Positions 10,097-64,000 of a stretch of 64,000 nt of DNA are shown here, piece after piece. Position 1 is the stretch's first letter. Each line of letters starts with the position of its first letter. The notes beneath the pieces were generated by a model. It made no database searches and was not told where the DNA came from. It worked only from the letters and a program-made list of their open reading frames with translations. The stretch is from an uncultured Chloroflexia bacterium. GTDB lineage: Bacteria > Chloroflexota > Dehalococcoidia > DSTF01 > WHTK01. The stretch covers positions 30,972-94,971 of the forward strand of contig CAVSWS010000020.1 of assembly GCA_963731765.1 (NCBI GenBank). The letters run 5' to 3'. The translations under genes were made by a program, and so were the position numbers.

Positions 10097-11380
10097 GCAA
10101 TTCGTCTCCCCGTAGCTCGCGACCCGTGGCCGCGTCCAGCACCCTTGCGCCGAGTCCGTTCGGCGGTGTTTCCACCAGCTTAGCGAAGAAGTTCGGGAAG
10201 GTCTTCGCCACGCAGTTGGGCTCCCGGATGCGCATGCCCGGTACTTTCAGTCCGAGGGTCGCAAAGCACATGGCGATGCGGTGGTCGTCGTACGTGTCGA
10301 TGTCGGCGCCATGCAGCGCGGACGGCTCGATCGGTCAGCGTGTCGCCGTCTTCCGTGACCGTTGCGCCGCACTTCGTCAGCTCCGTGCGCAGGGCATAGA
10401 CGCGCTCCGATTCCTGCACGCGCAGCCGGCCGAGGTCGGTGAAGCGCGAGGTCTTCGGGAGCAGGGGTGCGACCGTGATTGCGGTCATGATCGCGTCGCC
10501 GAGGTCGTGAAGACGCGACGTGTCCGTGTACTGGGCCTTCGGGTCTGAGAAGCGTCGCAGGTAGTCGACAAAGCGGGCGTCGATTTGCCAGTCAGACTCC
10601 GGCCAATCGTTCACCTGTAGGTGCGTCCATGGCAAGAGGGCTCCCGCCGCCAGGAAGTAGCTGGCGCTGGAAGCGTCCGGCTCGATGGTGTACTCGCCGC
10701 CGTGCTGCGGGAATGCCTCGATGAGCTTCGTGGTCATCGCGACGTAAGCCGATTCGTCTGCGTCCTCACCGGTGACGGTGACCTGCCAGCCGCCGTGCCT
10801 TGCCGAGAGCAGCAAGCGCAGACGCGAACTGGGAGCTCTCCTCGATGCTCACGCTGCAGGACCGCGACATCGAGCCGGTTTCACCGGAGAGCGTGGCGGG
10901 CAGATGCCCTCCTTCCGCCTCGATCCGGTAGCCGAGCTGTCGCAAGGCGTCGAACAGGGCAGCCTGGGGCCGCTGGTGCATGCGAGCCGTGCCGTGAACG
11001 CGATAGCTGCCGTTGCCTAGGCAAAGCATCGCAGTCAGAAAGCGCGCCGCCGTCCCCGCGTTGCCCACGTAGATCTCGAGCGGTTGGGACGCTGTTCCGG
11101 CGCGTGGTATCTCACCTGCGAGACCGGTGACGGCAATGGTGCAGTTGCCGGCCTCCGCTGCGTCCGGTTCCACGCTGACATCGAAGCCCAGCGTGCGCAG
11201 CGCCTCGACCATGATTTCGGTGTCTTCGCTCCACAGGGCGCCGTGCAGCGTGGTGCGACCGTCCGCCAGGGCAGCGAGGATCAGCGCCCGGTTCGTGATG
11301 CTTTTGGAGCCGGGGATGGTGACGCGCACGGGACCGCTGGGAGCGGGCGGCACGATTTCGATGACGTCAGGAAGCGCCAT
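10086..11380 (-). pseudogene. aroA: 3-phosphoshikimate 1-carboxyvinyltransferase (EPSP synthase) interrupted by two +/-1 frameshifts
   Basis: Three consecutive ORFs in different frames (11380-10766, 10815-10180, 10271-10086) together give a full-length AroA (N-terminal 'KSITNRALILAALA', middle 'DASSASYFLAAGAL', C-terminal 'YDDHRIAMCFATLGL'). Frame changes lie near 10800 and 10330. Confidence 0.8.
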
Positions 11381-51772: not shown

Positions 51773-53089
51773 ATGCTCACACCTGACGACAACCAGATCC
51801 TTACGCGCGTAGGCCCAGGGACGCTCATGGGCAACCTGCTGCGCCGCTACTGGCAGCCGGCATTGCTCTCCAGCGAGGTGGCCGAGCCGGACAGCCCGCC
51901 CCTGCGCGTGCGTCTGCTTGGTGAGGACCTCATCGCCTTCCGCGACAGCACCGGCGCCGTCGGTCTCGTCGCCAACGCCTGTCCACACCGGGGCGCTTCG
52001 ATGTTCTTCGGGCGCAACGAGGAGGCCGGGCTGCGCTGCGTGTACCACGGCTGGAAGTTCGACGTGAACGGCACGTGTGTCGACATGCCGTCTGAGCCTG
52101 CCGAGAGCAACTTCAAGACCAAGGTGCGCATAAAGGCTTACCCGACACACGAGTCCGGCGGCGTGGTCTGGACCTACATGGGTCCGGCGGAGTCTCGCCC
52201 AGAGTGGCGTCCGATCGTGTCGGACGCCCTGCCGCAGGAGAACTGGAAGGCGTTGAAGGTCGAGGGCCTGTGCAACTGGGTGCAGAGCCTCGAAGGCAAC
52301 ATCGACGCCACCCACACGTCGTGGCTGCACCGACGACTCGAGTTCGAGACCTTCCAGCCGGACGAATCGGACAGGCCGGGCTACCCGACACTGAACATGA
52401 CGTTCTTGATCTGGGCCCACGACGGCGCGCCGGTGCTGGAGACGCATGACACGTGGTACGGCTTCCGATACGCCGGCCTGCGCAAGACCCCGGGCGGCTA
52501 CACCCACGCGCGGGTGACCGACTTCATCATGCCGTCCCTGAGCTACATCCCGGTCGCACCCGTGGGCGCGAACGACTGCATCATCGTGGTGCCGATGGAC
52601 GACGAGCGGCACTGGCGCTACCACATCTCGACCAAGCCGGCGGTGCGCATGACCGACGGTACGCTGCAGGTGATACCGGGCAACCGCCCCGGCGGGATCA
52701 TGGAGCGCACGTGGCTGCCGGAGAACGACTACAACATCGATCGGGCGGACCAGAAGGTGAACAACTACACGGGCATCTCCGGCGGCGCCATCCCGCAGGA
52801 CCAGGCCGTCACCGAGAGCATGGGCACGATTTACGACCGCACCGCCGAGCATCTCGGCACATCCGACAAGGCGATTATCCGAATGCGGCGCATGCTCATC
52901 GATGCGGCGAAGAACCTCGCCGAAGGCATCGAGCCGCCCGCCGTCGACCCGGCGCTGGATTACAACGACTTCCGCAGCGCCGAAAAGATCCTCGAGCCTG
53001 AAGAGGACTGGCGACGCCTCGGCACGCAGGCTGACCCGGTCATGGCCCAACTTCAGCCTCTGATGGCCGCCCAGCGAGGCGGAACGTAA
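51773..53089 (+). CDS. Rieske [2Fe-2S] non-heme iron oxygenase, alpha-subunit type
   Basis: Rieske motif 'CPHRGASMFFGR...CVYHGWKF' and catalytic His/Asp region ('NWVQSLEGNIDATHTSWLHRR'). Confidence 0.85.
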   Translation: MLTPDDNQILTRVGPGTLMGNLLRRYWQPALLSSEVAEPDSPPLRVRLLGEDLIAFRDSTGAVGLVANACPHRGASMFFGRNEEAGLRCVYHGWKFDVNGTCVDMPSEPAESNFKTKVRIKAYPTHESGGVVWTYMGPAESRPEWRPIVSDALPQENWKALKVEGLCNWVQSLEGNIDATHTSWLHRRLEFETFQPDESDRPGYPTLNMTFLIWAHDGAPVLETHDTWYGFRYAGLRKTPGGYTHARVTDFIMPSLSYIPVAPVGANDCIIVVPMDDERHWRYHISTKPAVRMTDGTLQVIPGNRPGGIMERTWLPENDYNIDRADQKVNNYTGISGGAIPQDQAVTESMGTIYDRTAEHLGTSDKAIIRMRRMLIDAAKNLAEGIEPPAVDPALDYNDFRSAEKILEPEEDWRRLGTQADPVMAQLQPLMAAQRGGT

Positions 53090-56585: not shown

Positions 56586-57974
56586 ATGCTGTCACCAGAA
56601 GACAACGAACTCGTAACGAACACGAACCGCGGCTCGCCGATGGGCGAGGTATTCCGCCGCTACTGGCTGCCGGTCGCGCTCGCGGAGGAGCTGCCGGGGC
56701 CGGATTGCGAGCCTCTGCGCGTGAGGATCCTTGGCGAGAACCTGATCGCCTTCCGTGACAGCGCCGGCAAGGTGGGCGTCGTCGATGCGTTTTGTCCCCA
56801 CCGCGGCGCGCCGATGTTCTTCGGCCGCAACGAGGAGCAGGGCCTGCGCTGCATCTACCACGGTTGGAAGTTCGACGTCACCGGCAAGTGCGTCGACCTG
56901 CCGAACACGCCCGAGGGCGACACGTACAAGGACAAGGTGCGCATCAAGGCGTATCCGGCGGTCGATGCGGGCGATCTGATCTGGGCCTACATGGGCCCGG
57001 CGGACAAGCAGCCTCCGTTCCCGGAGTTCGAATGGACGAAGCTGCCCAAGAGCCACCGCTACGTCACGAAGTTCGTGGAGCAGTGCAACTACCTGCAGGC
57101 CATGGAGGGTGACTACGACCCGAGCCACGCCCGATTCCTGCACAGCACGCTGCACCCGGCCGAGGTAGACGCGATCCGCGCCGCCGGCTCTCAGCAGCAC
57201 ATCTTCAACGCCCCGGTGCCGGAGAACGAGCCCTACCCGCTCGCCGTCGGTAACCGCCGCATCCGCGACAAGTCCGGCTACCTGCCGGGGCAGCGTGGTG
57301 GTGGCCTCGACGCCAAGCTGGAGGACTACGAGCACGCCATGCTCTCGGTCCAGACCACCGAGATGAGCGACGGCAAGGTGGCTGCGAGCGTGGGTGCGAC
57401 GTGGTGGATGCCGATCTTCTGCACCGCCGGCATCGCCTTCGATGGCCACTTCTCCAGCAACATGCGCATCCCGATCGACAACGAGAGCCTGATGTTCTAC
57501 CGCCTGCGCTGGAGCTGGGAGCCGATCACGGACGAGCAGCTGCACGAGTACAAGTTCGGCGGCTTCAGCCACCCGGAGGTGATCCCCGGTACCTGGATGC
57601 CCAAGGCGAACCTGCAGAACGACTACCTGGTCGACCGCGTGGCGCAGAAGACGTTCTCGTACTCCGGCATCAAGACGTTCCCGTTGCAGGACATCGCCCT
57701 CATCGAGGCGCAGTGGGGCCCGATCGCTGAACGCGAGAACGAGCACCTGGTGGCGGCCGACTACATGATCATCCACGTGCGTAACCGGCTGCTGAAGGCG
57801 GCGAAGGATATGCAGCGTGGCGTCGAGCCGGAAGGGCCGTTCCATCCGGAGGTATTCCGTATCCACCGCGAGGGCGCCATCGCCGAATCGGCTGAAGAAG
57901 CCGTGGCGCAGGCAAAAGCCAAGGCTTTGGCGGCGCAGATCCCGCAGCGCATGCCCGCGATAGCTACCGGGTAA
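56586..57974 (+). CDS. Rieske [2Fe-2S] non-heme iron oxygenase, alpha-subunit type (paralog of 51773-53089)
   Basis: 'CPHRGAPMFFGR...CIYHGWKF'. High identity to the upstream paralog across the first 150 aa. Confidence 0.85.
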   Translation: MLSPEDNELVTNTNRGSPMGEVFRRYWLPVALAEELPGPDCEPLRVRILGENLIAFRDSAGKVGVVDAFCPHRGAPMFFGRNEEQGLRCIYHGWKFDVTGKCVDLPNTPEGDTYKDKVRIKAYPAVDAGDLIWAYMGPADKQPPFPEFEWTKLPKSHRYVTKFVEQCNYLQAMEGDYDPSHARFLHSTLHPAEVDAIRAAGSQQHIFNAPVPENEPYPLAVGNRRIRDKSGYLPGQRGGGLDAKLEDYEHAMLSVQTTEMSDGKVAASVGATWWMPIFCTAGIAFDGHFSSNMRIPIDNESLMFYRLRWSWEPITDEQLHEYKFGGFSHPEVIPGTWMPKANLQNDYLVDRVAQKTFSYSGIKTFPLQDIALIEAQWGPIAERENEHLVAADYMIIHVRNRLLKAAKDMQRGVEPEGPFHPEVFRIHREGAIAESAEEAVAQAKAKALAAQIPQRMPAIATG

Positions 57975-58036: not shown

Positions 58037-58190
58037 ATGCTCAGCAGAAGACTGTCGTTGCGAGGCCCGACCTCAGGAGGGCCGTGGCAATCCTTCAGCG
58101 CTCCTTGCCTCTCAATGCTCCGGGTAAACGCAGTGATGGCGCCTTTCAAACCCTTGCTCCATACCTACTACAAATTGGACTATCTGGAGC

Positions 58191-58439
58191 GTGCCTTACT
58201 ACGTCTACATCCTTACCAACTTCACGAACAACGTGCTCTACACAGGTGTCACGAGCGATCTATGCCGCCGAACCTGGGAGCATCGCGAGAAGCTGGTCGA
58301 GGGCTTTACGAAGCGATACAACGTCTGGAAGCTGGTGTACTTCGAGGACACTGAGGATGCTTTGTCGGCGATAGCTCGAGAGAAGCAGATAAAGGCGGGG
58401 CCGAGGACGGACGGAGAGCGTGCGATCTCGCGATTGTAG
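58191..58439 (+). CDS. GIY-YIG nuclease family protein (COG2827-like)
   Basis: 'YYVYILTNFTNNVLYTGVTSDLCRRTWEHR' is the canonical GIY-YIG core. Confidence 0.8.
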   Translation: MPYYVYILTNFTNNVLYTGVTSDLCRRTWEHREKLVEGFTKRYNVWKLVYFEDTEDALSAIAREKQIKAGPRTDGERAISRL

Positions 58440-58633
58440 AGCTCGCGAGACTCCACTGATGGTCGAGATCCTACTTGGACCCGCATCCTGTGGAGGCTCG
58501 GAGGGCTGACAGGTTGCTACGGCCGCTCCTGGGCGGACCTGTTTCTGGCAAGCGTCATAGGACTCGAAAGTGCCACGCCTCGGAGTCGCTGCAACGATAC
58601 CAAGGAACTCAACACCAATCACTCACACACACA

Positions 58634-58675: not shown

Positions 58676-58749
<74 letters not shown>

Positions 58750-58756
58750 GGATATT

Positions 58757-58840
58757 GGTGCCGAGGAGGGGATTTGAACCCCTACGCCCGAAGGCACGGC
58801 CCCCTCAAGACCGCGTGTCTACCGATTCCACCACCTCGGC
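58757..58840 (-). tRNA. tRNA-Leu (anticodon GAG)
   Basis: Reverse complement GCCGAGGTGGTGGAATCGGTAGACACGCGGTCTTGAGGGGGCCG...GGGTTCAAATCCCCTCCTCGGCACCA. Long variable arm; anticodon loop TTGAGGG. Confidence 0.85.
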
Positions 58841-59604: not shown

Positions 59605-60435
59605 CTAGCCTATGGGCGAGTCGGGGAAGTAGGCGTTGCAGGCCGCGATGCCGTTGTCGTAGCTCGAGTTGAACGCTTCGACGCGCTCGGCCGTGGTGCC
59701 GTGGTCGCGGGTGCGGCTCTCGCGCGAACCGATGAACTCCATCAGCGTCTCGATGTCGCCCAGGTCGTCATCGGTCTCGAGCCAGCCCTGGCCGTTGGCG
59801 TACTGGGCCCAGGCGCCGGAGACGCAGTCGGCCTGGTTCTCGAAGGCGATCTCGCTGGCCTGCGATCGGCCGTACTGCACGCCGAGGTTCGCCTGCAGGT
59901 GGTGGCCCCATTCGTGCGCCAGCGCGACGGCGGGCGCGGCGTCACCGGCCTGGTGGTAGAAGGCCCAGATCAGGTCCTGGCCGATGTAGATCGTCTGGTC
60001 GCCGGTGCAGTACTCGTAGGCCTCGCTGTCGGAGACGCCGCAGTAGGTGCGGGCGGCGCGACCGTCCGGGATGTAGACCACGTGCGGGTCGGCGAGGTCC
60101 GGGTAGGCCGTCTCGAAGTACTGCTGCACCATCGGGATGATGTCGGAGAGGTACTGGTCCATCTCGTTGAAGGTGAAGCAGCCCTCCAGGGAGCCGCCGC
60201 ACTTGTCGTTCGACACGGTCTGGGCCGGCACCGAGGTCGCGGTCGGCTCCGGCGTGGCCGTCGCGGTCGCCACGGCCGTGTTCGATGCCGTCGAAGGCGC
60301 GCCGGTCTCAGACGCCGGCACCGTCTCAGCGGCGCTCTGGGCATCGCCGGCATCGTCGCCGCCACCGAGCACCGCGCTGCCGCACGCCGCGGTCAGGCCG
60401 ACCGTCGTCAGGAGCGCCAGGGCAAACAGCTTCAT
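59605..60435 (-). CDS. lipoprotein, putative neutral zinc metallopeptidase (YpfJ/Zn_peptidase_2-like)
   Basis: Lipobox 'LTAACGS' and 'ALAHEWGHHLQ' (HExxH) motif. Start taken at the internal M (MKLFALALL). Confidence 0.7.
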   Translation of the reverse strand: MKLFALALLTTVGLTAACGSAVLGGGDDAGDAQSAAETVPASETGAPSTASNTAVATATATPEPTATSVPAQTVSNDKCGGSLEGCFTFNEMDQYLSDIIPMVQQYFETAYPDLADPHVVYIPDGRAARTYCGVSDSEAYEYCTGDQTIYIGQDLIWAFYHQAGDAAPAVALAHEWGHHLQANLGVQYGRSQASEIAFENQADCVSGAWAQYANGQGWLETDDDLGDIETLMEFIGSRESRTRDHGTTAERVEAFNSSYDNGIAACNAYFPDSPIG

Positions 60436-60479
60436 GTGTCCCACCTTCCTCATCTTCATCCCACCGATAGATCGAGGGT

Positions 60480-61990
60480 CTCATGCGGGGACGAGGGAGG
60501 TGCTAGGCAGGGCCTAAGCAAGTGTTATTTAGCTGTGAACGTTGGTTGGTGAGCTCTAGCATATGTGACAGGCTTGGGCTCGCCCACAACTCACCTCGGC
60601 ATCAGGCAGCGACTCAAATCAACGGTGGCCGGTGGCCAGGCTCTATCACCTGCACGTCTTTCCTTTGTTTTGGCAGGCCCCCAGCCAATGTTGGTCCTCC
60701 CATTAGGGTCAGTGCTTTATCCGGCTCAGGCGGCCTGTATTGGCTACAGCTGTCGCCAAGCATCGGTGAAATGCGCAGCTTCAAGAATCGCATTCGGCGA
60801 GGCATCATCAAAACGGGAGCAACCGCAGCACGGATTCGATGACGTGATTTTGATTCTATTGAATCAGTATTGAACGCAAGTGGCGCCGAAAATCTGTCTC
60901 TACTCTCCCTTTTCCATAAATGGAATCGTCGTAGAAGATAACGCGCATTCCTGCCACATCGAAGGGCAGATGCTGACTTCGTCTGGCAAGAAGAATAATC
61001 GGCTTGCCCATAGCGAATGCATAGCCGAGTTCGAAGTACACATTGGGATTGGGAGGAGTGATTTCTGCAACAATAACGCTGGCATCGTGAAGGTTCCGAA
61101 CAATGTCTTGGATAATAAATCCCGGTCCGGGAATTTCGTCTGCCCTAAGGAGTGAAAGGCCTTCGCTGGCCGCTATGGGTTGGAGTACGTCGCGGTATAA
61201 GGCTGTGAATGTTTCGTCAAAGCCATCGCGACGAACCCCGTTGGATTTACCGACTCAACTCTAAAGTCCTCGAACGTTACTGAACCGTGGCCTTGTGCCA
61301 TAACTCCAACTTGGGCGCCTGAAAATGATACCGCGGTCTGATATTCAAGCAGCTCTACGCCATCAACATATAGCCTGATTCGTTGCCCTCTGGTGATAAC
61401 CTTCAATTCGTATCGATGATCAAATCAAGATTCATTGCTGCACCTTCGGCCCGAAGATTAAGCCACCCCCTGATGCAGACCAAGATGAAACGCTGGCTAA
61501 ACTGGCCGAACCTCCGAGGCCGACTGATAAGAACCAGCGAAGAGCCAGATTCCAAGAGACCACGATGTGGGCCATCGCTTCCATCGCTGTGGGACAGTAG
61601 ATTGACCCTCCTCGGCGGAAGTCTCAATGAACTGAGAAGTCTGTCCCAATTGAGGCAAGGCTCCGGATGGTGACAGGGTCACAGCATGGTAATCTCGCCG
61701 TCTTTAAGAACAGCGTTAGTAAGAGCTAGAGCAAAGTTTGAGAGATCACCTGGAAAGACAAGCTTGTCGTCTCCTGGCTCCCAGGGGCCATAGATGCGCG
61801 TCCAGTTCGCAGGAACAGTCTACAGCCTACGCCTGCCCTAGTCAGCGTCCAGCTCGCGCGCCTACCCTTTGACCACTGCTCACGGTTCTGACGAGTCACG
61901 TAACGTCCATTCCCAATGCGACCATGAAAGCGACTCGGCCTTGTGCTTAGTTAGGGTATTGACAAGGTGCTGCCGAGCCTAGTAGCTACT
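60480..61990. other. low-GC (~42-50%) island with decayed gene fragments
   Basis: Base composition falls sharply relative to the ~68% GC flanks. The minus strand carries several protein-like fragments in different frames separated by stops. Confidence 0.6.
60856..61254 (-). pseudogene. remnant of a nucleoside 2-deoxyribosyltransferase-like / TIR-like domain protein (no start codon, N-terminus lost)
   Basis: The frame open between stops translates to '...ALYRDVLQPIAASEGLSLLRADEIPGPGFIIQDIVRNLHDASVIVAEITPPNPNVYFELGYAFAMGKPIILLARRSQHLPFDVAGMRVIFYDD...'. This carries the [FY]-E-[LI]-G-Y-A-x-A-x-GKP-[IV] NDT-like/TIR-like motif. An upstream ConA/LamG-like fragment ('RIRLYVDGVELLEYQ...GHGSVTFEDFRVE') lies in another frame. 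Confidence 0.5.
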
Positions 61991-62007
61991 GGCTAATGCA
62001 ATCAATG

Positions 62008-62039
62008 AAGAGGGGCGGTTCAACGAACCGCCCCTTCTT
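62008..62039 (-). terminator. rho-independent terminator of the ffh-rpsP-KH operon
   Basis: aagaggggcggttc-aacg-aaccgccccttctt followed on the minus strand by a U-rich tract (uucauugauug), 40 nt after the KH gene stop. Confidence 0.55.
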
Positions 62040-62077
62040 GGTGCTTACTGACTTGTGGCTTGAGCTTCGAGGCGCGC

Positions 62078-62308
62078 TCAGTCGCCGATGTCGAGGACGG
62101 CGCGGGTGTCTTCGCGGGCGGAGGCGACCTTCAGGAGGGCGCGGGTGGCCTCGGCGACGCGTCCGCCGCGGCCGATGACCTTGCCCATGTCGCCGTCAGC
62201 CACGTCCAGGTGCAGGACGTGACGGTGGCCGTCCCAGTCGTCCGTAACGACGACCTCGTCCGGGTTCTCCACCAGGGCGCGAGCTATGTACTCGACTAGC
62301 TCTTTCAT
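62078..62308 (-). CDS. KH domain RNA-binding protein (YlqC/UPF0109 family)
   Basis: 'LVEYIARALVENPDEVVVTDD...VADGDMGKVIGRGGRVAEATRALL' has the KH GxxG motif. It lies downstream of rpsP, as in the conserved operon. Confidence 0.8.
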   Translation of the reverse strand: MKELVEYIARALVENPDEVVVTDDWDGHRHVLHLDVADGDMGKVIGRGGRVAEATRALLKVASAREDTRAVLDIGD

Positions 62309-62734
62309 GCCTCTTCGGTGGTCTCTTCTGTCGGAGCTTCGGCCGCGGGCTCTTCAGCCGCAGCCGGTTCTTCCGCAGCCGGGGCTTCAGCGGCCGGTGC
62401 CTCTGCGACGGCGGTCGCGTGCGGGAGCAGCTGCAGCAGCCGGGCGGGCAGCCTGGGGCTCTTCCTTCGCCTTCGGGGGCGGGAAGACCAGCGGCTCCAT
62501 GATGCCGACGGTCGCGAACAGCTTGTGCATGCGCTCGGTCGGCTGGGCGCCCTTGGACAGCCAGGCGCGTGCCTTCTCCTCGTCGATGACGAAGGTGTTG
62601 GGCTCCGTGCGCGGGTTGTACTGGCCGATGATCTCGACGTACTTGCCGTCGCGCGGTGCGCGGGCGTCCGCGACAACTACTCGGTAGGTCGGCTGCTTCT
62701 TCTTGCCGACTCGTGCGAGCCTGATTTTTAGCAA
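62305..62734 (-). CDS. rpsP: 30S ribosomal protein S16 with Ala/Glu/Pro-rich C-terminal tail (one apparent frameshift inside the tail region)
   Basis: 'MLKIRLARVGKKKQPTYRVVVADARAPRDGKYVEIIGQYNP' is S16. The ORF-track frame stops at 62387, but a second frame continues as 'AEAPAAEAPAAEEPAAAEEPAAEAPTEETTEEA' to a stop at 62305 that overlaps the KH gene start (ATGA), so the true gene most likely ends at 62305. Confidence 0.8.
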
Positions 62735-62753: not shown

Positions 62754-64000
62754 CTAGCGAATGCCAAGCAGCTTGGCGGTTCGGCCGGAAGCCATGGCCT
62801 GCATCATCTTCTTGGCTTCCTTCCACTGCTTGAGCAGCTGATTTACATCTGCCGGCGTCGTGCCGCTGCCTTCCGCAATCCGACGGCGGCGGCTCCCGTT
62901 GATAATGTCGGGATTACGACGCTCTACCGGGGTCATCGAAAACACGATCGCCTCGGCGCGCTTGAAGAAGGTATCGTCAATTTCGGTTGCCTGCAACTGG
63001 CGCTTCATGCCGCCCATGCCCGGGATCATGCCCAGGAGGTCGGAGATCGGCCCCATGCTGCGTACTTTCTGCATCTGCTGCACGAAGTCGTTGAGGTCCA
63101 GCTGGTTCGCCTTCATGCGCTTGCCGAGCTTTTCGATGTCCTCGTCGCCGATGTTGGCCTGGGCCTTCTCGATCAGGGTGAGGACGTCGCCCATGCCGAG
63201 GATGCGCTGGGCAAACCGGTCCGGGTAGAAGGGCTCCAGGGCGTCGGCGCGCTCACCGGTGCCGACGAACTTGATCGGCAGCCCCGTCATGGCGCGGATC
63301 GAAAGCGCGGCGCCACCACGGGCGTCGCCGTCGAGCTTGGTGAGGACGAAGCCGGAGACGGGTGTCGCTTCGCCGAACTCCTGGGCCACGTGCACGGCTT
63401 CCTGGCCGGTCATGGCGTCGACGACGAGCAGCGTCTCGTGCGGCTGGAAGCACGAGACCAGCGCCTGCACCTCTTCGACGACGTCCTCGTCCAGCTGTAC
63501 GTAGCCGGGGGAGTCGACGATGAGGGTCGTGGCGCCGACGCGTCGCGCTTCGGCGAGGGCGTCCTTCGCGAGCGTCTTGATGTCTTTGGGGTCGCCGGGG
63601 AAGACGGCGACGTCGTACTGCTTGCCGAGGCTGATCAGCTGCTGCGTACCGGCGACACGGTAGGGGTCGGCCGAGACGAGCAGGGGCTTGCCGCCGGACT
63701 TGCGCAGGTGCAGGGCCAGCTTCGCCGTCATCGTCGTCTTGCCGGCGCCCTTGAGGCCGACGAGCAGGAGGACAGTCGGGGGCTGCGGCGCCGTCGTGAG
63801 GGTCGACTGGCTGCCGCCGAGCATGCTGGTCAGCTCTTCATTGACGATCGAGATGACCTGCTGCGGGCCGGAGAGCGACTGCAGCACTTCGATGCCGGAC
63901 GCGCGCTCCCGCACGGCGCTGATGAAATCGCGCACGACGCGGAAGTTGACGTCCGCCTCCAGCAGAGCGACTCGTACTTCACGCAGGGCCTCATCGAGGT
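62754..64000 (-). CDS. ffh: signal recognition particle protein Ffh (5' end beyond the window)
   Basis: SRP54 G-domain 'LLVGLKGAGKTTMTAKLA' and M-domain 'GMIPGMGG'. The reading frame stays open to the window edge (...VRDFISAVRERAS). Confidence 0.9.
   Translation of the reverse strand, partial: LDEALREVRVALLEADVNFRVVRDFISAVRERASGIEVLQSLSGPQQVISIVNEELTSMLGGSQSTLTTAPQPPTVLLLVGLKGAGKTTMTAKLALHLRKSGGKPLLVSADPYRVAGTQQLISLGKQYDVAVFPGDPKDIKTLAKDALAEARRVGATTLIVDSPGYVQLDEDVVEEVQALVSCFQPHETLLVVDAMTGQEAVHVAQEFGEATPVSGFVLTKLDGDARGGAALSIRAMTGLPIKFVGTGERADALEPFYPDRFAQRILGMGDVLTLIEKAQANIGDEDIEKLGKRMKANQLDLNDFVQQMQKVRSMGPISDLLGMIPGMGGMKRQLQATEIDDTFFKRAEAIVFSMTPVERRNPDIINGSRRRRIAEGSGTTPADVNQLLKQWKEAKKMMQAMASGRTAKLLGIR

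Follow-up and report, generated by a model that had tools for sequence, protein, structure and literature searches.

Strain-variable cargo hotspots between core genes are known from enterobacteria and pseudomonads as defence islands. The catalytic nucleophile of Rcl and of nucleoside 2-deoxyribosyltransferase (NDT) is a glutamate, which in Rcl lies within the motif GYELG. A domain of this type is also used in defence by the effector of retron Ec86 (bioRxiv 10.1101/2023.08.16.553469). Here we describe a locus that touches on both subjects, located in a window (the whole stretch of DNA that was analysed, 64 kb of contig CAVSWS010000020.1) from an uncultured soil Chloroflexota lineage. It was found that a low-GC segment at 60528-62008, lying between a KH-domain gene and a zinc (Zn)-peptidase gene, holds a frame-broken gene for a protein with an NDT-like domain. 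We consider it probable that this segment is horizontally acquired, strain-specific cargo in a hypervariable slot that extends from the terminator of the KH gene to the upstream region of the Zn-peptidase gene, and this assessment applies to the best explanation as a whole, comprising the slot, the cargo gene, the proposed mechanism and the state of the gene. Like the defence-island hotspots of enterobacteria and pseudomonads, the slot has identical core flanks that enclose unrelated, lower-GC, single-gene cargo in closely related strains, some of it broken. It differs from them in being very small (0.5-1.5 kb, one gene), in belonging to an uncultured soil Chloroflexota lineage, and in having arisen at the site from which a ribosomal-protein operon lost an rRNA-maturation gene and two tRNA genes.

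A strain-variable slot behind the KH-domain gene

The slot and its two edges comprise the following features, in window coordinates.

60528-62008, no strand assigned: strain-specific low-GC insert, 1481 nucleotides (nt), GC 0.52; flank alignments to the loci L072-L075 stop and resume here
62078-62308, minus strand: KhpA-like KH-domain gene, last of the ffh-rpsP-KH operon and left edge of the slot (PF13083, 7.8e-20)
62011-62035, minus strand: terminator-like hairpin GGGGCGGTTCGTTGAACCGCCCC with perfect 11-nt arms and a 3-nt loop
60470-60534, minus strand: right edge of the slot, a conserved region upstream of the Zn-peptidase gene; AACTGTTAACAC in the sisters, diverged to AGCTAAATAACAC in the window
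59605-60459, minus strand: putative neutral zinc metallopeptidase gene, the first conserved gene past the slot (PF04228, 5.4e-12)

GC content was profiled in 200-nt windows, and the insert was compared with equal-size stretches across the 64 kb. Between about 60400 and 62000 the 200-nt values were 0.46-0.57, with 0.65-0.75 on both sides. The stretch 60528-62000 (1473 nt) had a GC of 0.523 against a mean of 0.643 (standard deviation 0.022) for stretches of its size, of which it was the lowest in the window (z = -5.45), and nowhere else did the 800-nt GC fall below 0.56. The GC at third codon positions (GC3) of the cargo gene was 0.48, compared to 0.83-0.94 in neighbouring genes. The drop in GC described in the initial annotation is thus present, although the 42-50% given there was slightly low (mean 52%, minimum 46%), and its limits of 60480-61990 nearly match the foreign segment as delimited by alignment to relatives.

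Relatives were collected through an Ffh scan of species-representative genomes, which placed the lineage in the Chloroflexota among metagenome-assembled genomes labelled Dehalococcoidia or Chloroflexia, and the sisters L073 and L074 through an exact match of the KH protein, which is 100% identical in L001 and L072-L076. L001 (Ffh 92%) is the closest representative and runs collinear with the window outside the slot: window 64000-62001 aligns to L001 9936-11966 and window 60527-58675 to L001 12431-14283, and 465 nt of repeats resembling repetitive extragenic palindromic (REP) elements replace the 1.47 kb of the window. The slot of L072 likewise consists of 464 nt of REP-like repeats. It was noted that L001 11966-12431, which corresponds to L072 10308-10771, is non-coding and contains two copies of the palindromic REP-like element CCTCGTAGGGGCGCACGGCCGTGCGCCCCTAC.

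The flanks of L073 and L074 are 98-99% identical to those of the window, and the slot contents are unrelated. In L074 the slot (10310-11326) carries an intact 338-amino-acid (aa) Ser/Thr kinase gene (Pkinase) with a Cys-rich C-terminal tail, and in L073 (10299-11222) a DUF2971 gene whose closest intact relative is P0284 (37% identity). Both genes lie on the opposite strand, so that cargo orientation varies between strains, and the slots of the window, L073 and L074 have a GC of 0.521 each. In NCBIfam, the L074 kinase came closest to MAD6, a MADS defence kinase, in its kinase domain, with a score far short of the cut-off of that model. Flank alignments to L072-L075 break off at 62009/62001 and resume at 60527, and the junctions coincide in the window, L001 and L072-L075, lying just past the hairpin on one side and at AACTGTTAACAC on the other. 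No homologue of the cargo family was found in any of the 68 related loci, and the insert DNA had no match among plasmids. The horizontal acquisition proposed from the sequence is accordingly borne out, with the segment missing from L001, L073 and L074 and other cargo standing at the same junctions.

We then compared the slot with loci that have kept its former occupant. The rimM gene directly follows the KH gene in about 40 retrieved loci, roughly 30 of them from Chloroflexota, including L003, L004 and L065, whose Ffh proteins are 76-80% identical to that of the window. In these three loci rimM is followed by tRNA-Ala(CGC) and tRNA-Trp(CCA), and in L003 the Zn-peptidase gene comes next; this gene is syntenic in L001, L003, L073 and L074. 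The module is missing from the slot in the window, L001 and L072-L075, and rimM was not found anywhere in the 64-kb window. From these gene orders, rimM-tRNA-Ala-tRNA-Trp appears to have been the ancestral occupant of the slot, lost from this position in the genus-level clade of the window. The initial annotation had expected rimM-trmD-rplS at this place, which holds in this phylum for rimM; when trmD and rplS were sought by tblastn with Escherichia coli sequences, neither was in the window, and downstream of ffh they followed rimM only in Firmicutes, spirochaete and Nitrospirota loci. The pair was linked in no Chloroflexota locus, the sole exception being one in which rplS lies about 10 kb away on the other strand. 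A displaced rimM-trmD-rplS cluster was therefore narrowed to rimM and the two tRNA genes.

The hairpin GGGGCGGTTCGTTGAACCGCCCC is kept in L072-L075; L003, L004 and L065, in which rimM comes after the KH gene, lack it. Because it is restricted to the clade that lost rimM here, it seems to have arisen or arrived with the rearrangement. Homology with the sister strains ends just past it, at 62009, and the insert does lie directly behind the operon terminator as first described. A simple terminator scan did not report the hairpin at 62011-62035, owing to its weak T-tail. As for the lost module, the two samples that yielded L072 and L073 also contain a RimM protein (P0262), encoded in a carA-carB-rimM-tRNA-Ala-tRNA-Trp arrangement; this may be the module relocated from the slot, if it stems from the same organism. 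It was also noted that the contigs L078 (6812-12498) and L079 share 98.9% identity as far as about 25 nt beyond tRNA-Trp, after which L078 carries a phage-integrase and HTH_17 island that L079 does not have, a classic tRNA-Trp integration site.

These observations bear on how the cargo arrived. It is conceivable that a dedicated recombinase delivered the cargo and that the slot serves as a site-specific integration or cassette site, like an integron or a tRNA attachment (att) site. Five genomes share the junctions within a few bases, past the hairpin and at AACTGTTAACAC; tRNA genes are classical integration targets, and two of them, tRNA-Ala and tRNA-Trp, formerly stood in the slot; and the rimM-tRNA-Ala-tRNA-Trp module from the L072 and L073 samples has an integrase island about 25 nt past tRNA-Trp. 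However, neither an integrase nor direct repeats nor attC-like inverted repeats were found in or around the insert, cargo orientation is not constant among the strains, and the right-hand motif is already present in the ancestral arrangement of L003, which makes it promoter-like rather than att-like. We consider such a dedicated site very improbable. Since a sequence related to AACTGTTAACAC already stands upstream of the L003 Zn-peptidase gene, the junctions read as edges of selectively maintained elements and not as att sites. Two points also weigh against our own explanation insofar as it implies insertion at a specific site: only short chance matches, and no direct or inverted repeats, flank the segment, with no integrase nearby; and the shared junctions correspond to a terminator and a conserved upstream region, and may simply mark where selection preserves sequence. 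A tRNA-targeted integrative island was rejected, as there is no integrase open reading frame (ORF), there are no flanking repeats, and the former tRNA genes of the slot are absent from the window.

One two-domain gene with a broken frame

Within the insert, protein-like fragments are present on the minus strand in three frames. We assigned them to the following features.

60862-61819, minus strand: cargo gene of a ConA-like plus NDT-like two-domain family, frame-broken, full-length, about 319 codons, stop codon at 60864-60862
61222-61819, minus strand: ConA/CBM66-like beta-sandwich domain in three frames, in pieces 61819-61682, 61584-61468, 61471-61421 and 61424-61222
60865-61221, minus strand: NDT/DNPH1-like nucleotide N-glycosidase domain, motif NPNVYFELGYAFAMGKP, catalytic Glu kept (PF05014, family profile, fold)

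The initial annotation had described these fragments as remnants of an NDT/TIR-like and a ConA/LamG-like gene. Both homologies were recovered, but in one gene joined across a single-base frameshift and not in two. When the fragments were joined over the one-base frameshift near 61222, the resulting 184-aa query retrieved intact 300-320-aa proteins with identities reaching 59% and coverage of 98-99%. Pieces of the window map in order onto positions 51-89, 89-105, 104-185 and 173-291 of the family hidden Markov model (HMM), and a frameshift-aware alignment to the relative P0002 spans 61807 to 60865 with no in-frame stop. The N-terminal piece 61819-61682 gave a weak match (E about 0.1) in the right order. 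Because the family positions follow one another over about 319 codons, which is the full length of the family, the two remnants appear to be one complete copy of a two-domain gene with a broken frame, rather than two truncated pieces.

A search of fragment 61221-60865 against Pfam, which the initial annotation had recommended, gave 30.9 bits on PF05014 (cut-off 28.8), and this C-terminal domain scores 199.5 bits on the family HMM. Its motif YFELGYAFAMGKPI lies at about 61038-60997, and the window sequence YFELG holds the family-invariant Glu. A structural model of the 126-aa C-domain fragment of the window reached a predicted local distance difference test (pLDDT) score of 86.8. All of its top 50 matches in the PDB were MilB, DNPH1/Rcl or BcmB, mostly at template-modelling (TM) scores of 0.5-0.66, with E = 3.8e-5 against MilB and TM about 0.45-0.66 against DNPH1/Rcl chains. 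On profile and model, the domain thus appears to have both the flavodoxin-like alpha/beta fold and the catalytic residue of the NDT superfamily. The NDT part of the earlier NDT/TIR-like call was supported by profile, by sequence matches to solved structures and by fold; the TIR part was weak, with E = 1.2e-3 and 19.3 bits on PF10137 (cut-off 24.7) and no TIR structure among the top 50 fold matches. Membership in TIR/Cap12-PycTIR (PF10137) proper was rejected on these grounds, the relation being one at superfamily level only. In another frame, the ConA-like C-terminal strands (61424-61167) match PF06439 only weakly (E = 0.15), at the right profile position; the window and its relatives reached E = 0.15-0.19 and 12 bits (cut-off 26.8), so that PF06439 membership by sequence does not hold. 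The ConA jelly-roll fold itself was established on the intact relative P0002, and the N-domain of the window, which is frame-broken, is alignable to it.

The frame changes were placed with frameshift-aware alignments to five homologues.

61222, minus strand: single-base deletion GGCTTTGAC, T3 where T4 restores ...FVAMAFDETF...; placed at 61222 by four of five homologues and at 61210, 12 nt downstream, by P0011
61419-61425 (about 61422), minus strand: single-base deletion GATTTGATC, T3 where T4 restores NLDFDHRYELKV (compare NIEFGRRYKLHV of P0002); five of five homologues
61466-61475 (about 61469), minus strand: single-base deletion in or beside the G5 run CAGGGGGTGG; all four homologues that reach it, and a frame change of the HMM
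61590-61690, minus strand: further N-terminal frame changes in a poorly conserved loop region, one at about 61686; placement not robust

After about 61686, one further deletion or, alternatively, two insertions are needed between about 61646 and 61560; the path of P0002 has a one-base deletion at 61686 and one-base insertions at 61646 and 61561. Five successive one-base deletions would give the observed order of frames, and a sixth would link the GTG at 61899 as start codon.

We next weighed whether these lesions lie in the organism or in the assembly. The gene had been called decayed and inactivated, which is right in that its frame is broken and start-less. It is doubtful in that, after frame correction, no in-frame stop remains and invariant residues persist: the window residue is kept in all 13 invariant columns of the C-domain alignment and, by manual reading, at all 32 family-invariant positions. 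Coding-type periodicity of GC at first, second and third codon positions (GC1/GC2/GC3) also persists. Bacteria gather roughly ten substitutions per indel, so five or six indels should by estimate have brought tens of substitutions, and none are seen at constrained sites. Judged as a pseudogene, the copy shows disruption of frame relative to intact homologues, and it shows no substitution load in the form of stops or lost invariant residues.

Similar lesions were found in related assemblies. The DUF2971 cargo of L073 has five +/-1 frameshifts, no in-frame stop and all of its conserved motifs. In L077 (4000-5500) the essential gene ffh is split by four +1 frameshifts without a stop codon, and in L074 a permease and an acyl-CoA dehydrogenase fusion (about 2318 and 5965) each have one frameshift relative to L073. 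Such cases point to indel errors in related assemblies of the same ERZ accession series with Flye-style contig names. In the window, a strain-specific segment would have less read coverage than flanks common to co-occurring strains, and errors could cluster there for that reason. On balance we lean slightly towards the reading that the frameshifts are consensus errors of long-read metagenome assembly over a low-coverage strain-specific segment, with the gene intact in the organism.

Several observations weigh against consensus error. The flanks of the window are clean: they hold long intact ORFs and differ from L073 by one indel over 6.5 kb. Each of the three robust shifts is a deletion within or next to a short homopolymer, of the kind that natural slippage makes, and the N-terminal frame has no start codon and a stop directly upstream. 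That the cargo gene was really inactivated, and very recently, has close to an even chance. In its fuller form this alternative holds that the gene was disabled in vivo by slippage deletions and start loss and is now neutral DNA in an unmaintained slot, which we regard as credible, if on the whole not favoured. Three robust single-base deletions, further frame changes in the N-terminal third and the lack of a usable start would then all be genuine, the robust sites (T3, T3, G5) being those expected of replication slippage, the contig being accurate elsewhere by the single flanking indel, and a sister cargo that is also frame-broken (L073) together with a slot holding only repeats in another relative fitting a "graveyard" hotspot. 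Against it stand the lack of any nonsense codon after correction, the 13 of 13 and 32 of 32 invariant residues, the preserved periodicity, the frameshift errors in essential genes of related assemblies, and the general-knowledge estimate, by which several of the expected substitutions would have hit invariant sites or made stops.

An unnamed protein family and its candidate function

By sequence and structural model, the cargo gene belongs to an unnamed two-domain family of about 310 aa with an N-terminal ConA/CBM66-like and a C-terminal NDT/DNPH1-like domain. An AlphaFold model of the relative P0002 (pLDDT 87.5, predicted TM score 0.84) has a beta-sandwich at residues ~8-197, for which the best PDB match was CBM66 (4azz; E = 1.2e-9, target TM 0.82), with DUF1080-type, galectin and GH16 jelly-rolls ranking next. 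This upholds, for the family, the ConA-like fold first recognised in the window. The family profile matches Rcl/DNPH1 at 1e-7, with the invariant (F/Y)E(L/V)G (fyElG) aligned to Rcl GYELG, and Cap12 (7un8) at E = 0.44 only. Intact relatives score 23.8-27.7 bits on PF05014, just below its cut-off, which suggests a marginal or divergent member of PF05014, and 12-18 bits on PF10137 (cut-off 24.7). Six related proteins were matched in their C-domain by the PADLOC model PDLC00733 ("Effector, TIR"), five of these at values of 1e-13 to 4e-18. The family lacks an NCBIfam model and is named by no PADLOC system, and we found no publication on a ConA-like plus NDT/TIR-like architecture.

The family is large: a search of 1.84 billion representatives gave 901 clusters at E <= 1e-30; nearly all of the best 150 of these clusters are two-domain and matched across most of the profile. 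At least 581 metagenome loci carry it. On IMG/VR contigs, P2-like tape-measure and tail genes immediately precede full-length copies, and shorter relatives are placed between genes for lysis and for the baseplate. By itself, the NDT-like domain is frequent among temperate phages of streptococci and staphylococci and also on plasmids, where its annotation is always hypothetical. Beyond lineage duplicates, no neighbour family recurs among the 51 flanked loci. In L069 and L070 the GC of the family gene is about 10 points below the host flanks, and one copy adjoins a methyltransferase and an NmeDI-like endonuclease (restriction-modification). These results are in keeping with a solitary, mobile accessory gene. 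It was also observed that in L083 (1554-2532) a family member is split at the domain boundary into ORFs of 191 aa and 124 aa and is flanked by ISL3/IS4-type transposases; this split may be another frameshift, real or artefactual.

With respect to described proteins, the C-domain shares its fold and the (F/Y)E(L/V)G motif with DNPH1/Rcl and MilB/BcmB (PF05014), from which the cargo family differs by the added N-terminal ConA-like sandwich and an identity of only about 25-30%. With the effectors of retron Ec86/Eco1 and of the Cap12-PycTIR type in the cyclic-oligonucleotide-based anti-phage signalling system (CBASS) and the pyrimidine cyclase system for antiphage resistance (Pycsar), it has in common an NDT-superfamily domain with a conserved Glu. 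Like NDT/TIR-like effectors, the family is solitary, mobile and found in prophages, and PDLC00733 matches its relatives. In contrast to the retron, CBASS and Pycsar systems, no reverse transcriptase, non-coding RNA, cGAS/DncV-like nucleotidyltransferase (CD-NTase), cyclase or SAVED, STING or CNB domain adjoins the inspected family loci, and the putative sensor, compared to those of TIR-like effectors, is a lectin-like beta-sandwich. Membership in CBASS or Pycsar was rejected on two counts, as no CD-NTase or cyclase was present in the inspected neighbourhoods and none was recurrent in the 51 loci, and as the N-domain is ConA-like and not SAVED, STING or CNB. The N-domain resembles CBM66 and DUF1080 proteins (PF06439, 3-keto-disaccharide hydrolase) in fold, with weak collinear PF06439 matches. 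It departs from them in that the sequence matches lie far below the cut-offs and no obvious signal peptide was seen by eye in the aligned N-termini.

A tentative mechanism can be outlined from these likenesses. The protein would act alone, without a partner; its ConA-like beta-sandwich would bind a ligand or trigger; and its NDT-like domain would use the conserved Glu as nucleophile to hydrolyse a nucleotide at its N-glycosidic bond, an activity predicted from the fold and that residue. A nucleotide or cofactor pool might then be depleted during phage infection, by analogy with NDT-like and TIR-like defence effectors. A defence role of the family is plausible on the same analogy, and the family would work like an NDT/TIR-type effector yet fits no named defence system. 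Taken to its most specific form, the proposal is of an undescribed single-protein anti-phage system, borne on prophages and small chromosomal hotspots, in which the sandwich senses a phage ligand and activates a DNPH1/MilB-type N-glycosidase that destroys a pool of nucleotides, with the window copy intact in vivo and its frameshifts due to the assembly; in this form we judge it distinctly unlikely. Hydrolysis of hydroxymethyl-dUMP and hydroxymethyl-CMP is the reaction of the nearest solved relatives, and for this reason the modified nucleotides of some phages could be the target in such a system. Counted against a defence role are that no NCBIfam model or PADLOC system names the family, and that three of five sampled family contexts are plain housekeeping or metabolic neighbourhoods.

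The same neighbourhoods bear on a metabolic alternative, in which the cargo gene encodes a salvage or other metabolic enzyme, such as a nucleotide N-glycosidase with a carbohydrate-binding module, that is mobile by chance and has no part in defence. The closest solved relatives are indeed metabolic: for the C-domain they are DNPH1/Rcl, MilB and BcmB, and for the N-domain CBM66 and sugar-acting proteins of the DUF1080 type. Several family members also lie between metabolic or housekeeping genes. However, the family is sporadically distributed, has a lower GC than its hosts and keeps no conserved operon partner, its copies occupy prophage accessory positions, insertion sequence (IS)-rich regions and a place next to a restriction-modification system, and the best PADLOC match is a defence-effector model. 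This alternative is in our view unlikely, though not to be passed over.

Surroundings of the slot and wider meaning

The genes on either side of the slot region include the following.

62754-63935, minus strand: ffh, in the operon upstream of the slot
62387-62734, minus strand: rpsP, between ffh and the KH gene
58676-58840: tRNA-Cys and tRNA-Leu genes
58191-58439: GIY-YIG ORF, 82 aa, GC about 0.54-0.58

The tRNA genes and the GIY-YIG ORF were found where they had been placed from the sequence. In the insert itself, the ORFs in 60522-60873 and 61726-61899 had no Pfam match, no sigma-70-like promoter was detected, and terminator-like matches occurred only inside the cargo gene; Rfam gave no match in 60300-62200 at E <= 1. 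A second strain-variable slot was noted at 58085-58594, about 80-160 nt downstream of the 3' end of tRNA-Cys, where the window has the GIY-YIG ORF and L073 and L074 have unrelated sequence of similar length between flanks that are 98-99% identical. The 3' end of rpsP (62310-62430) encodes an Ala/Pro/Glu-rich, low-complexity extension of S16 whose length differs among the window, L073 and L074 and which carries several indels of 1-11 nt between them. Two Rieske/LigXa-type oxygenase genes (56586-57974 and about 51773-52191) are paralogues with approximately 72% nt identity over about 420 nt, and both are conserved in L073 and L074.

For genome scans, the locus carries a caution: strain-specific segments in long-read metagenome assemblies can mimic decayed genes when the lesions are single-base indels only. 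The slot represents a clean natural one-gene cargo hotspot in an uncultured soil Chloroflexota lineage, with at least three different cargos among near-identical strains. The unnamed family that occupies it in the window is widespread, with about 900 clusters at 50% identity and copies in prophages, and would make a reasonable candidate for a stand-alone nucleotide-targeting defence protein.

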